A stretch of 45,565 nt of DNA from Candidatus Omnitrophota bacterium (GCA_043803685.1 JAZDJU010000057.1:1-45565), one strand, 5' to 3'. Shown: positions 26,001 to 32,000, counted from the first letter of the stretch. The notes: a model not told the origin generated them from the letters alone. Numbers and translations are program-made.

Positions 26001-29000
26001 TTCGACAATTCTTCGCCCATCTGGCGACCATGACCGAAGGGATCGAGAGGCAACGGCAAAACATGGTCCGGGGGGCTGTTCTTTCAGGCTGTGTGGGCGC
26101 GCTGTTTTTGATCTCTTGGCTGTTTCCGTTCCGAGCGGACATTCCCGAGGGTTGGGCGGCGCTTTCCAGTCTTTTCGTATCTTTATGCGTCGGAGCTATG
26201 AGCGGATTTATAACGCACAAGATATGGGACTCGCGCTCACGGAAATATTCTTTGTATTATTTAGATAACATCAAAAAGATCGCCCATCCTGAAAGAGAAG
26301 AAAATCTCCAAACATTAAAGACCTTGATCCCGGGAGCGGACGATCTGGGGAAGGCCTACGACATGATGCTGAGCGATGTCACCACCCGCTTCAAGAACGG
26401 AAGGCTTTCCGGAAGATTATCCGTTCGGTTGCGCATCCTGCCTCGAGGACAAGAAAATCCCCGTCATACTTTTTGGAAAGGCTTCTGGAATCGCGCCGTT
26501 GCGGAGATCCGGTTCGATCATTCCCGGATCGTGATCAAGGCCAAAGGCAAAAAAGAAGAGGTTTTTCCCGTGGTGATCCCCACCGGCGATTATTCTTCGG
26601 TCAAGGCGCTTGTGATACAGGGCAGAAAGGCGATCAGGCGGAACATCGAAGAGCTGATCTTTGAAAAAACGGGAGCCCGGCTGGGGCGATCTTTTGAAGA
26701 GATCGTGGGGTTGATGGAGGCATCCGGGCGGGTTGTGACGCTTGAGGTCACGGGTGAGACGATCGCGTTACACAGTGATCTTGACGAAGTTTCCGTGACG
26801 ATCGACGATCAAGGGGAAATCCTGAAATTGCCTTTTTACAGCCACGGCCTGTACTCCCCAACACTGTTCAAGCGTTACGGGAAATATCTCTTTGGATATC
26901 ATTCCCATCCTGTGATCCGAGGCATCACTCCCGATGATATGGATGTGATCGAAAGCTCCTCAGAGACCTTTGATCGTCCCATCCCCGAGATCATCTGGAG
27001 CCGGAACGGCTCTACGGAATTATACGGAGACGTCTATATGCCGGTCCCCGAAAAAATTTCTGAAAGGAACGGCCTGGAAAGTTATTTTGGCGTTAGTGAT
27101 GTTCCCGTCCTGACCCTGAAAGTGACCCTGCCTTCTGAATTTAATTTGGGTTCCACTCCCGCGGCCAACGCTCGCTCCGAGATGCGTACCGTGCCATTAG
27201 AAATGCGCACGGAACTTTCTGAAGTTGTGAATGTCTCCAGGACCCAGCGGCCGAGCTTGTCGACAGCTGAGCCGATGTCTTCTGTTGCCCGGGAGATCTT
27301 AAAGTTATTGGCTTCGGTGGACGGAAGATACATTCGAAGATCCCACGTCACACCCAGGATCGTTCAACTCTTGTTGAGCATTCAAAGGGATGGAAAACCG
27401 GTTTTTCGTCATGGCCACGCGCAAAAGATCGGGAACTTACGGAAGATAGGGGAGCGGCTTCCTTTGCTGGAATATTTACTTGCCTACAAAAGCTCGGTTG
27501 CGGGAAAGTCAACGTTCATGTTCCAAGGCACGCATATCTCCATGATCCTGAAAAGCTCGCGCTCCCAGGACGAGATCAAACGCGTGATCGAGCTGTTAAT
27601 CAAGTTGAAGATCACCGAAAGCAGCCCGATCTCGAAGATCGTTTTTAGTTCTCGGCCTGAAGAGGAGATCCCCGGATTGGTCAGGGTATTAAGGAGGTTG
27701 GGAATCACCGAAAACAGTCCGGTCGCTACGATCTTACAAGGGACCCGGCCTGAAGCCGAGAGCGAGAGAGTGATCGAGGTGTTAAGGAAGTTGGAGATCA
27801 ATGAAAGCAATCCGATCGCAATGATATTGAACAGCTCTCGACGCGAGGAAGAGATCCCGGAATTGATCGGGTTGTTAAAAAAGCTTGGCATCACTGGAAG
27901 TAACCCTGTCGCTATGATCTTGCAAAGCTCGCGTCCCGAGGACGAGATCAAGCGTGTGATCGAGCTATTGGATGGGTTGGGGATCACGGAAAGCAATCCG
28001 GTCGCCAAGATCTTGCATAGCGATAGATCCGAAGACGAGATCAAGCGTGTGATCGAGCTGTTAGATGGGTTGAAGATCACTGGAAGCAGTCCAGTCGCCA
28101 AGATCTTGGAAAGTTCGCGTTCCGAGGCCGAGATCAAGCGTGTGATCGAGCTGTTAGATGGGCTAAAGATCACAAGAAGCAGTCCAGTCGCCATGATCTT
28201 GCAAAGTTCGCGTTCCGAGGCCGAGATCAAGCGTGTGATCGAGTTGTTAGATGGACTAAAGATCACAAGAAGCAGTCCAGTCGCCATGATCTTGGAAAGT
28301 TCGCGTTCCGAGGCCGAGATCAAGCGGGTGATCGAGCTGTTAGATGGGCTGGGGATCACGGAAAGCAGTCCGGTCGCAAGGATACTGCACAGTTCTCGAT
28401 CTGAGGCGGATATCCGGAAAGTGATCGGGATGTTAAGGGGATTGGAGATCACCGACAGCCATCCGATCTCTCTGATCTTGCAAAGCTCGCGTCCCGAGGC
28501 CGAGATCAAGCGAGTGATCAAGTTATTAGATGGGCTGGGGATCACGGAAAGTGGTCCTGTCGCTATGATCCTTTACAGCTCTCGACGCGAAGATGAGATC
28601 CCGGAATTGATCAGATTGATAAAGAGTCTGGGCGTCACTGAAAGTAACCCGATCGCTAGGGTGTTGCGAAGTTCGCATGACCAAGGCCAGATCAAGAAAA
28701 TGATCGAGTTTCTAGATGGTTTGAAGATCACTGGAAGTAATCCTGTCGCCACGATCCTGCAAAGTTCTCGCCCCAAGGACGAGATCAAGCGGGTGATCCA
28801 GTTATTAAATGGGTTGGGGATCACGGAAAGTGGTTCTGTCGCTATGATCCTTTACAGCTCTCGACGCGAGGATGAGATCCCGGAATTGATCAGGTTGATA
28901 AGGGGCCTCGGAATTACCGAAAGCCTTCCGATCGCGAGGATCATAAAGAGGTCGCGATCGAAGAAAGACTTAAAAGCTTTTGATGGGTATAAGCGCAAAA

Positions 29001-32000
29001 TGGAGGAGAAGCATTATCCCGGGCATTTTGTTCCCTATGTTTTAAGTCGCTTAGCCCTAAGCAAGTCTCCGGATAGCTTGTTTAGCAAGATCATCGCGTT
29101 TGATTTTAACGTAGCCCGATCGTATGCAGAGCAGATGCCGCTCAATACCAGCAGAAGAGAGTTTGACAGTTATTTTGGCAGTATGTTTGGCGGTATGTTT
29201 GACGGTATGGGGGAATGGCTTTTGCGGTTCCTGGGGAAAGACTTCCGTTCTTTACGGGCAGTGATCCGCGGCTACGCAAAAGAGCTTTTGTTGCTGGATG
29301 TTTTTCCGGAAGGCATGGGTATGGACAGAATGAGTCCCGTGAGTCAAACGACAGGCGTGGATCGTTCACGGCTTTGGCAGTTCCTCGAACCCAGCATCGC
29401 GGCACTTTCCCATGACGAGCAGGAGGTTGTTGAAGCTTTTCTGGAGGGGATTACGGAGAGCGAGATCGGTGTTATGTACCCGTACATTTCATTCCAGGGA
29501 TTACTGGACAAGCTTAGGGCAGCGCTAGAGCAGGGAGTCGATCTGAGAGAGGGTGTTTATTCGGCTACTTTTAATAGATATACGGGATTCGAGCCTCCGA
29601 TGGAAGACGCCCCATCAGGGGAGCCAACCTTTGCCATGCCTTTGCTGCCGGACGCTTCAGGTGGTTTGGGAGATGCGCTAGAGACTCGCTCCGAGATGCG
29701 GAGCGCGGAAGGCCCTAGGGCAAGAACGGCGTTGGATGGTTACGCGGATTCTATGGCGCTTTATCCTCGGGGGCTCCTGCATTCGATAGACCTTAGGGAA
29801 TCCCTCGATCCTTTTGATAAAACGAATTATGAATTCGTGGAAACGCCGGAGGGCAATTATTGGCGATCCAAACATTTCAAAGGCGCCAACGAACTCGTTT
29901 TGGGTTCCTGGGAGGATATTGTTGCCGTGGACCCTGCGCTTCCGGCCAAGATGAAAAGGAATATCGTAACGCGTTATAAATTGTCCGATGGGAAAACGGC
30001 GAGTTTTTATTACTTCGACGATCACGGCCGGTCTGTCGCATACGCGATGGAGGCGGTCGCTAGAGGAGAAATGCCAGCCGTGGGCAACACGCAGATATTT
30101 ATCGATGCCCATGAAGACAACCATGAGGCTCCGGCGTCGCCTTCCATGCCGATCTCTTTGGAGGACTGGGATTCTCTGACCGGAACGCAGGTGCGCGCTG
30201 ACAATTTTAATACGGCGCTGGGGCGTATCCAGTTCTTGAAGAACCATCTCCATATCAAACGGGTGGGGAATGCTTCAAAGTTTGACTATTGGTTGGTCGG
30301 GAAGAAGCAAAGCTACTTTGAGTTCCGGATGCGTCCGCAGAACCAGCCTGCCATGATCAATATCGACACCGATACGACCGGACAAACGAAGTATTTTCTG
30401 AACGCGCCCTCTCCCAAGCTCGGCGTGGAGGCCTCTGATCTGAGGTTTTATTCAGAGCTTCTGTTGAGGCTTTCGCGCAAAGATGGCGTGTCCCCCTCGA
30501 CCTTTCACGCGACGACCACCAGCGCGCATGCCACGCAAGACGTCTATACAGAATTTGGCGACGTCCGCATCGTCCAGTTCCTTGCAAGGGTCGCTCCGGC
30601 GATCTTGTTGTATCCGCCGGAGAAATTGAGTGAAACGAAGCTCACGCCCCTTATCAATCAAGTGATCCCCGCATACGTTACCGCCCGGCCATCGGCTGGA
30701 AATGTTAAGTCCCGTTCGGAAGTGAGGACCGGGATTGTTGGGAATCCATTTCCGAGGCTTCGATCGATGGGGCAGGTCGGGAGAACACATTTGTTTAATG
30801 CTTTTACCGGGAAATATGAGATGCGGAATCTGCTCAAGGGAGGTCCGATCAGACAACCAGATTTCTTCGCAGCATTGAGTCGCGATGAGAGCAAGTTGGA
30901 AATGCTGAGGAGAAAGTACGGTGAGATGGTTGGAGATACATCGTTCGATCCAAACTTTGCGAACCCGGAAGATGTTGTCGCGTTTGATCCGGTGATCGAC
31001 CAATTCCTGGAAGGAAAGTTGGGCGCTAGCTTGATCTACAAACCTAACCATGGGGCTTGGAGTCAAAAGGTGTTTTTTTTGACGAGGGATACGGAAAATA
31101 ATGTGACGGTTTCCATGAACCTCGGGAAGGGTTTAATTACCAATGATTTTGCCAAGACGCTGCGGGACTATTTTAAGGAAACTGGCGAAGCTGAGATCCG
31201 GGAAAACTCGAGTGATTCGGCTAATCCGATGGTTCGATTTACACTGCCGTCTTCCCGGGAGGATCTCCGGAATATCCTTCTGAAGATCAAAGATAGGATC
31301 TCTGTTTGGGAGGTTGATAACACTCACCACCATTTTGCTGAATATGATTCAGGAATGATAGAGTCCGCCATGGACTTTGTGAAGCCTGATGGATTTGCTT
31401 ATGAGACACGGCATCGCTTGAAAGGGAATTTATTGAAGGGAACAACTACGCTCGATAAGAAGAGCGCCAGGCAGATGGGCATGGAAGCACTTACAGGTCC
31501 TTCCGGCTGGTTTGCCAGGCTGGGGAGCGACGCCTATTTCACAGGAGGAGAAGATATTCTTTATCCGCAAATGTTCCAACCGCTTTTTAAGGAACTCCAC
31601 CTTCCAAAGACAAGGCAAAAAGAGTTTGAGGAGCATGTGGATCAGCTTGTTAAGGCGGAGTTTGAATACCTTGCGAACCGTCTCAAAGCTGCCGGTATCT
31701 TTCTGGATGCGGATTTGGAAGTGCAGTTCGATCTGATGTGGCTGCCTCCGGAAAAGAATAGTGACGGATTCCCGGTCCCTATTGTTATAGAAGCAGCTAT
31801 TCATAGGAGTTCTGATAAGGGCATTCCTGAAAAAATTCCAGTGCGATCCGAGGATCCCGGACGCCGTCCAGAGGGAGACGTTAAGGCTCGCTCGGAGGTT
31901 CGGGATGAAACAGACGCCGGGCCAGGGACGCCGGACCCAGGGCAACAGCCCGGGCAAAGTATTCAGCCTCCAAGGGAGCAGGAAATTCAGCCCTGGCAAA

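Follow-up and report, generated by a model that had tools for sequence, protein, structure and literature searches.

Modular reading of nucleic-acid sequence is limited to few natural architectures, namely TALE, PUF, PPR and zinc-finger proteins and perhaps pTERF, each of which became a tool or a model for recognition codes. TALE-like proteins are defined, in the account of PMC4787788, by a repeat of 33-35 amino acids that keeps Val7, Gly14 and Leu29. The classic mTERF signature, as quoted in PMC11417379, consists of a proline at motif position 8 and hydrophobic residues at positions 11, 18 and 25, and a 2026 survey describes no mTERF genes in bacterial genomes (PMC12977773). The pTERF proteins are bacterial tandem mTERF-like repeats of 3-11 units, mostly from metagenome-assembled genomes (MAGs) of gut Bacillota, and are called the first distant prokaryotic homologues of mTERF; pTERF1 and pTERF2 are described as binding different specific double-stranded DNA motifs with nM affinity, and the authors suggest that they could be reprogrammed (Hu et al. 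2024, PMC11417379). The present work deals with a module encoded at positions 27188-29686 (+ strand) of a 45,565-nucleotide stretch of DNA from Candidatus Omnitrophota bacterium (GCA_043803685.1, JAZDJU010000057.1:1-45565), the whole of which is called the window here. The module is part of a giant open reading frame (ORF) and carries sixteen tandem repeats of 31 amino acids. This array is probably a nucleic-acid-binding superhelix, and the module could be a superhelical repeat domain of the TALE/mTERF kind, most likely a binder of double-stranded DNA, a reading to which we give a probability of about 0.5.

The repeat array and its predicted fold

The array is made up of 16 in-phase units of 31 amino acids each, with no insertion or deletion (ORF residues 2478-2973), and Tandem Repeats Finder reported it with a period of 93, 14.1 copies, 71% matches and a score of 789 at 27540-28849. 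The features of the module, with the evidence on which each was placed, are as follows (HMM, hidden Markov model; pLDDT, the predicted score of the local distance difference test).

27527..29014, + strand: sixteen tandem 31-amino-acid repeats (Tandem Repeats Finder, in-frame reading, DSSP, Pfam, Foldseek)
28922-29014, + strand: unit 16, a degenerate cap (unit alignment)
27272..27526, + strand: lead-in domain of about 85 amino acids, helices and a small beta hairpin (lead-in HMM, model pLDDT ~77-94)
29015..29686, + strand: C-terminal helical domain (domain HMM, model)
29363..29533 (module residues 726-782), + strand: putative sigma-70 region-4-like four-helix helix-turn-helix (profile against PDB, Pfam in homologues, model)
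27173..27187, + strand: RSEMR motif at the upstream edge of the module (motif search)
29687..29701, + strand: RSEMR motif at the downstream edge of the module (motif search)

The module (833 amino acids) is exactly the part of the ORF between two RSEMR copies, the same span that an earlier sequence-only reading of this DNA had given. According to that reading the array fills the module; it does lie within a single one, but it occupies about 60% of it and is flanked by an N-terminal part of 113 amino acids and a C-terminal domain of 224. The 15 repeats counted there correspond to units 2-16 of the 16 that are present, and the residue triplets quoted for them (columns 2, 6 and 9 of the unit) were reproduced in 15 of 15 cases. 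The last unit is degenerate, with 19-38% identity to the others. Units 7-9 are, as had been noticed, nearly identical (90-93% in protein, 89-95% in DNA). Their differences had been placed largely at the triplet, and this holds for units 7 and 8, where non-synonymous changes occur only at columns 6 and 9 and synonymous ones at columns 23 and 26, but in the pairs 7/9 and 8/9 columns 28 and 31 differ as well. The earlier observation was therefore real and largely accurate, and it is partly confirmed.

A wider group of similar units (5-9, 11 and 14) shares 64-93% identity in protein and 74-95% in DNA. Non-synonymous differences among them fall at columns 2, 4, 5, 6, 9, 11, 13, 14, 15, 22, 25, 28 and 31, and synonymous differences accumulate at scaffold columns 1, 3, 10, 12, 19, 23, 27 and 30. 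This distribution, with synonymous changes at the scaffold and non-synonymous ones restricted to certain columns, points to purifying selection on the scaffold.

Regarding the structure, two AlphaFold2 models were used. Model 1 covers the whole module, was built with a 19-sequence alignment and showed a mean pLDDT of 78.9 (about 86-96 in the repeats). Model 2 covers the lead-in and the array, was built with a 20-sequence alignment and reached a mean pLDDT of 90.9 and a predicted TM-score (pTM) of 0.70, the five models of this run having 90.9, 90.8, 79.7, 66.7 and 60.5. In both models, DSSP divides the unit into helix A (columns 1-8/9), a loop up to column 13, helix B (columns 14-26) and a connector (columns 27-31), in which a short 3-10 turn would not be reported by the DSSP output used.

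Foldseek comparison of model 2 with the PDB gave six matches at E <= 1e-3. The top rows were DNA-bound TALE fusions, 9jo8_A (E 7.6e-5, TM-score by query, TMq, 0.53), 9ld0_A (0.59) and 9lcy_A (0.59), and further TALE matches were AvrBs3 on DNA (2ypf_A, 0.55/0.52), PthXo1 on DNA (3ugm_A, 0.56) and many dHax3 entries (about 0.44/0.52). The model was closer to DNA-bound BurrH (4cja_A, TM-score 0.51) than to the apo form (4cj9, 0.35). These TALE and BurrH superpositions (TM-scores 0.51-0.59) cover about 610-680 columns with a probability of 1.00. Human MTERF1 on DNA was also found, with weaker matches than TALE: 3n6s_A at E 9.2e-3 and 5crk_O, 5co0_O, 5crj_O and 3mvb_O at E 0.02-0.04, with a probability of 0.99-1.00, TMq 0.17-0.27 and TM-score by target (TMt) 0.28-0.43. 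Designed left-handed alpha/alpha toroids appeared among the matches as well. Model 1 retrieved the same families, with TMt 0.30-0.46 for MTERF1. Hence, the TALE-like helical solenoid proposed in the sequence-only reading agrees with both models, which come closest in predicted shape to the superhelix of TAL effectors on DNA. The natural proteins among the matches listed for both models (49 and 50 rows) were nucleic-acid binders only, namely TALE, BurrH and MTERF1; HEAT, ARM, TPR, ankyrin, PPR and PUF proteins were absent from these rows, including the HEAT-like match that had been named beforehand as speaking against a nucleic-acid reader. A viral fold library gave 0 matches at E <= 1e-3 (TM-score <= 0.12). 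The neighbours by features in a protein atlas were TAL_effector clusters (scores 0.75-0.82), which is to be taken as a lead only.

Concerning the sequence family, five members of a set of 14 homologues exceeded the gathering cutoff of the Pfam model mTERF (PF02536), which is 23.1 bits: P0002 (91.9 bits, E 4.5e-26, in three stretches), P0003 (62.1), P0007 (37.0), P0006 (34.9) and P0014 (32.4). The two halves of the window's array reached 23.9 and 27.2 bits against the same cutoff, with two stretches each, and the whole module showed no mTERF row at E <= 1 and no credible Pfam match. All these mTERF scores need care, since repeat proteins inflate Pfam scores. Matches to ALS_ss_C, DAHP_snth_FXD, NIL and similar beta-alpha-beta families were discarded as repeat-inflated noise, given that the array is predicted with high confidence to be all-helical in both models. 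For the Pfam model TAL_effector (PF03377) there was no match, with thresholds of E <= 1 for the module, E <= 10 for the array halves and E <= 1e-3 for the 14 homologues, and the PUF, PPR and HEAT models gave no match in the scans of module, array halves and homologues. NCBIfam returned nothing above any cutoff. When the module and a 19-sequence profile were compared with PDB sequences, no TALE, mTERF, PUF or PPR chain was found, and the sole repeat protein matched by the profile was a synthetic chain of alphaRep type (HEAT-like) at E 0.2. The repeats had been considered an unrecognised family, and this claim does not hold: the match to mTERF is strong for the homologues and marginal for the window's array, and the pTERF proteins are already described in PMC11417379.

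The array is accompanied by two conserved domains. The lead-in HMM matches directly upstream of the array in more than 24 proteins, and in the homologues the lead-in always precedes the array. The C-terminal domain HMM matches after the array in the window and in nine other proteins (P0002, P0003, P0007, P0008, P0010, P0011, P0012, P0019 and P0050). In model 1 this domain has pLDDT 60-85 and shows a disordered linker at module residues 690-729, after which four helices at residues 726-782 are compatible with sigma region 4. A profile of the C-terminal domain (alignment A5, seven sequences) gave 11 matches to PDB sequences at E <= 10, nine of which were RNA polymerase sigma factors, all aligned on region 4 with weak E values (0.018-0.12). 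Pfam found Sigma70_r4_2 in two of seven members of the domain, Sigma70_r4 in one (5.7e-6) and GerE in one, and no match in the window's own copy. Hence, the end of the module could be assigned with modest confidence to a sigma-region-4-like helix-turn-helix.

Column chemistry and proposed function

The columns of the unit were compared in 185 units extracted with a repeat HMM from 11 homologous arrays, of which 174 were kept after dropping the last, degenerate unit of each. Columns 2, 6 and 9 ranked 1-3 in mean within-array entropy (2.15, 2.10 and 2.08). In units 2-15 of the window the highest values were those of column 9 (2.55 bits), column 6 (2.07), column 22 (1.92) and column 13 (1.81), followed by columns 2 and 15 (1.73 each) and column 25 (1.69). 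Asp or Glu occupies five of 522 cells at columns 2, 6 and 9, versus 181 of 696 at helix-B columns 15, 19, 22 and 26. This contrast holds in 10 of the 11 arrays, the remaining one (P0010, six units) having no acid at either column set, and its Fisher p of 1e-41 is inflated because the repeats are not independent. Furthermore, column 12 is Arg in 165 of the 174 units, column 10 is Ser or Thr in 155 and column 11 has Ser in 134. At column 9, 127 units carry Gln, Arg, His, Tyr or Lys, and the net charge is basic in nine of the 11 arrays (+0.3 to +1.7 per unit). On these statistics, columns 2, 6 and 9 are set apart by a near-total lack of acidic residues, next to a near-invariant Ser-Ser-Arg loop.

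The array could wrap nucleic acid with the helix-A side and the A-to-B loops toward the ligand. The near-invariant Ser10-Ser11-Arg12 at the N-terminus of helix B would grip the phosphate backbone in each unit, and the acid-free column 9 at the end of helix A, together with columns 6 and 2 one and two turns back, would contact bases or the groove and give the unit its preference. On this scheme the length of the target would be about 16 units, with about one position per unit. The sigma-region-4-like helix-turn-helix may provide a second DNA contact or a dock for RNA polymerase, and the module may be released from the giant precursor at RSE[V/M]R linkers. A binder of DNA is supported by the fold matches, the mTERF scores, the Arg12 and acid statistics, the variable number of units, the sigma-like partner domain and the precedent of pTERF.

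The interior of the TALE superhelix is lined by short helices. We infer that columns 2, 6 and 9 face inward from the position of column 9 at the junction of helix A and the loop, which faces DNA in TALEs, from the superposition on DNA-bound TALEs and from the lack of acids at these columns. Several points weigh against the DNA-binding reading, starting with the indirect basis of this orientation. Columns 26, 19, 22, 15 and 23 are close behind the triplet in the 11 arrays (mean entropy 1.98-1.86), and since the variable columns rank on both helices, the variable set corresponds to the exposed faces of both, as in any solenoid. The sequence-only reading had concentrated the variation at three columns; these do rank highest in the 11 arrays, but helix-B columns are nearly equal. 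When the window was compared with its closest relative, P0002, by repeat index, columns 2, 6 and 9 were identical in 5, 6 and 1 of 15 units and columns 15, 18, 19, 22, 23 and 25 in 4, 1, 2, 3, 0 and 2 of 15, so the divergence of the triplet between orthologues is not above that of the helix-B surface, although homogenisation of repeats makes this comparison by index unreliable. Columns 2, 6 and 9 also showed no covariation beyond within-protein shuffles (z 1.9, 0.2 and 0.15), and so they form no triplet words. As a special set, the triplet thus keeps its high variability and its near lack of acids, but it does not covary and it diverges like helix B. Moreover, the window's own array has Glu at column 9 in two units and is not basic (net -0.13 per unit, neutral), and in the arrays of P0003 and P0006 column 9 is mostly Gln, a pattern that would suit a structural cap no less than a code. 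The unrelated ALS_ss_C model scored above mTERF on the window's array halves (38 and 44 bits), and the other four models of the model 1 run had low confidence (pLDDT 59-64). Finally, the N-termini of the giant ORF and of the standalone homologues P0003, P0007 and P0008 look like signal peptides (by eye, without a predictor), which is odd for a cytoplasmic DNA binder.

Several of these points also fit a solenoid that spaces or assembles the enzyme modules, or binds a surface component of prey or host, with the variable columns as solvent surface. Such a scaffold for proteins or other ligands, which we consider a less likely but serious rival, would explain that variation tracks the exposed faces of both helices, the lack of covariation, the equal divergence of both faces between orthologues, the neutral charge of the window's array and the signal-peptide-like N-termini of the homologues, and many HEAT, TPR and NHL scaffold repeats are reported in giant proteins of Omnitrophota in the preprint text (10.64898/2026.06.07.730766). 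On the other hand, the acid asymmetry and the near-invariant Arg12 are unexpected for a neutral surface, the array is fused to the sigma-region-4-like helix-turn-helix, and neither HEAT, ARM, TPR nor ankyrin proteins are among the Foldseek matches listed, the HEAT-like synthetic protein being reached only by the sequence profile at E 0.2. That the array is a non-functional coding repeat, recently expanded and drifting, is highly improbable: the identity among units 5-9, 11 and 14 indicates recent duplication or homogenisation, but the period, the scaffold residues and the flanks are conserved in proteins of 30-59% identity from other genomes, and the synonymous changes at scaffold columns indicate purifying selection.

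The array could also bind a structured RNA or a single-stranded nucleic acid in the manner of several plant mTERFs, acting together with the RNA-processing modules of the ORF and without base-per-unit reading of a duplex. The Pfam family is mTERF, whose members are described as DNA or RNA binders in PMC7909791 and PMC7826268, and the same ORF contains a beta-CASP RNase, a NUDIX-like and a second mTERF-scoring module. Nevertheless, we regard this as unlikely, because the predicted shape is nearer to DNA-bound TALE than to MTERF1, the partner domain resembles the DNA-binding sigma region 4 and the characterised prokaryotic mTERF-like proteins bind double-stranded DNA as described in PMC11417379. 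Returning to the binder of double-stranded DNA, the earlier interpretation as a nucleic-acid reader is partly supported by these predictions, and a simple per-unit code would be plausible and unproven, its probability being rather low. In its boldest form, which we take to be distinctly unlikely, the protein would be a natural programmable DNA reader of a new type, in which Ser-Ser-Arg holds the backbone, column 9 (mostly Gln, Arg, His or Tyr) reads one base per unit with tuning by columns 6 and 2, and the sigma-region-4-like fusion steers RNA polymerase to chosen sites. A reader of this kind could serve the cell itself as a programmable sigma-like or activator factor. Alternatively, it could be exported as an effector against the DNA of prey, which would suit the signal-peptide-like N-termini and the life as predators or epibionts that has been proposed for Omnitrophota.

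Relatives and the giant open reading frame

A search with the module in 1.84 billion representative proteins gave 48 matches at E <= 1e-3, 16 of these at E <= 1e-30, and the repeat family appears to be rare. The closest relatives are standalone proteins of 960-1,422 amino acids (P0002 with 59% identity, P0003, P0007 and P0008), and many other homologues are giant proteins of up to 7,094 amino acids. The period of 31 amino acids is kept throughout, and the number of units between the same flanking domains ranges from 2 to 28, arrays of 15-19 being common. A closed toroid or an array of fixed size, suggested by these common lengths, was set aside because of the range found in members with the same flanks. 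The scan of species-representative genomes gave three loci: a contig titled Candidatus Elulimicrobium sp., which has the homologue as a gene of its own (1,296 amino acids); a Candidatus Omnitrophota bacterium, where it lies inside an ORF of 3,269 amino acids; and an Omnitrophica bacterium. The named relatives are Omnitrophota-type MAGs.

In one Candidatus Omnitrophota MAG (L002:3-9893, + strand), the ORF with the homologous module continues into a homologue of the module that comes next in the window (window amino acids 3203-3268, compared with 29687-29900 of the window), and a related S-E-D-R stretch takes the place of the RSEMR site. From this arrangement, the studied module and the next one may belong together. 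The genes around the standalone homologue in locus L001 show no homology to the remaining modules of the ORF in the window.

The host ORF is open at its 3' end, where the window stops, and has 8,490 codons. It is split into modules by R-S-E-x-R motifs, and its recognised parts are the following.

20096..45565, + strand: giant multi-module ORF (ORF call and Pfam scan of modules)
22631-24970, + strand: module with beta-CASP metallo-beta-lactamase RNase (Pfam)
32960-33352, + strand: module with DnaJ J-domain (Pfam)
36101-36790, + strand: module with Rce1-like membrane protease (Pfam)
37418-39868, + strand: module with PrmA-like methyltransferase (Pfam)

Besides these four, the Pfam scan of the other modules gave an mTERF match and a weak NUDIX match, and no match was found in nine of the 16 scanned. 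The strict motif occurs 18 times, and with the relaxed form R-[S/A]-E-x-R there are 21 copies between modules of unrelated function in 20096-45565 (+), for example at nucleotides 22037, 22616, 27173, 29687, 30713, 31889, 33338, 36086, 39854 and 41621. Several copies have a longer conserved lead, [R/G]-R-[P/S]-E-G-[D/E]-V-x-[S/A], before RSEVR. The codons vary between copies, so the motif is maintained at the protein level, and it looks like a polyprotein processing site. Elsewhere, homologues of the repeat module are encoded by standalone genes, which lack the R-[S/A]-E-x-R motif.

Pfam mTERF also matches the last module of the ORF, at 43193-43738 (+), with 30.5 bits (E 2.3e-7). Upstream of this region, at about 42000-42400 (+), repeats of about 37 amino acids resemble the lead-in and the repeat of the studied module, and the repeat HMM matches one unit of the last module near amino acids 7409-7430. 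A link between the studied array and this mTERF-scoring region was not supported by profile-profile comparison (probability 1.3%).

Other observations concern the rest of the window. An unannotated domain of about 400 amino acids is present twice in the ORF, at 38573-39853 (+) after the PrmA-like methyltransferase module and at 44513-45565 (+) at the end of the window (37% identity, E 1e-74). Just before the second copy there is a 27-nucleotide (nine amino acids) tandem repeat at 44397-44513 (+), a Pro/Ala/Lys-rich linker with 4.3 copies and 85% matches. Near the N-terminus of the ORF, direct repeats of 14-15 nucleotides at 20348-20376, 20736-20764 and 21356-21384 (+) coincide with odd peptide inserts rich in Pro, Arg, His and Gly (amino acids about 85, 204 and 305), and they look like small DNA elements read through in frame. 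An antisense ORF of 353 amino acids runs over the repeat array (27484-28545, - strand) and is most likely a by-product of repetitive sequence poor in stop codons. Upstream of the giant ORF, the genes on both strands of positions 1-20000 resemble ordinary bacterial housekeeping and transport genes, as judged from translations read by eye. Candidates recognised in this way are a SulP-type transporter, a HemN-like radical SAM enzyme, a rubrerythrin-like protein, a phosphoglycerate mutase, a cation/acetate symporter, a UV-damage endonuclease-like protein and a polysaccharide flippase.

Comparison with TALE, mTERF and pTERF proteins

If the module does read DNA, its compact 31-amino-acid unit of TALE shape and different loop chemistry would be a new scaffold for designed DNA binders and a natural experiment on the evolution of recognition codes. 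It is also relevant to the question of where mTERF proteins came from, since bacteria are still said to lack them, and it offers a first clue to the function of one module in the unexplained giant multi-enzyme proteins of Omnitrophota. If it is a scaffold only, it would be a clean case of a TALE-fold solenoid used for a role other than nucleic-acid binding. Within the library searched, no paper combined Omnitrophota with mTERF, the two preprints on Omnitrophota giant genes do not mention mTERF, and TALE and Omnitrophota were not combined among the literature matches listed.

The array shares with TAL effectors and TALE-like proteins (Xanthomonas TALEs, Burkholderia BurrH/Bat, MOrTL and STAR) the tandem units of short helix, loop and long helix that form a superhelix, what may correspond to their hypervariable polar residue, at the end of the short helix or start of the loop (column 9), a motif at the N-terminus of the long helix that could be a conserved phosphate binder, and a number of units that varies between members. 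Unlike them, its unit has 31 amino acids instead of 33-35, and the Val7, Gly14 and Leu29 pattern is not kept: in the 174 units the equivalent of Val7 (column 4) is Ile in 104 and Val in 35, that of Gly14 (column 11) is mostly Ser, and the spacing to the conserved Leu differs. The equivalent of residue 13, which specifies the base in TALEs, is column 10, a conserved Ser or Thr, so the TALE code would not apply as such. There is also no match to Pfam TAL_effector, and the flanks (the lead-in and the sigma-region-4-like domain) and the setting, a giant multi-enzyme ORF in an Omnitrophota-type bacterium, are different.

With mTERF proteins (PF02536, including human MTERF1 and the plant mTERFs) the array has in common a period of about 30 amino acids, the Pfam matches and the fold match to solved MTERF1. 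However, its units follow each other in strict tandem and are almost the same in sequence, in contrast to the degenerate motifs of mTERF, and the global TM-score to MTERF1 is lower than to TALEs. The mTERF motif has about 30-33 amino acids and three helices, and the present unit of 31 shows two by DSSP (8-9 and 13 residues) plus a connector of five residues. The signature of Pro8 and heptad hydrophobics is not kept across the family, in which column 3 is His in 96 and Pro in 30 of the 174 units; Pro is the residue in the window's units, and ten positions after it column 13 is polar (Ser 67, Lys 43, Asp 16). Moreover, the array is bacterial, in contrast to the absence of mTERF genes from bacteria stated in the survey of PMC12977773.

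The pTERF proteins, compared by description only, are the nearest published functional precedent, being, like the present family, prokaryotic and made of tandem units annotated as mTERF motifs. The array differs from them in its Omnitrophota-type MAG relatives, in its length (15-19 units are common, with up to 28), in its conserved lead-in and sigma-region-4-like C-terminal domain and in the frequent location of its copies in giant ORFs. As far as models and profiles indicate, the array is by shape like a TALE array, by sequence profile a relative of mTERF and by organism and arrangement closest to pTERF. The best reading would be an Omnitrophota-type version of a nucleic-acid-binding solenoid, with a distinctive near-invariant loop, a 31-amino-acid unit, a sigma-like partner and a giant-polyprotein setting.

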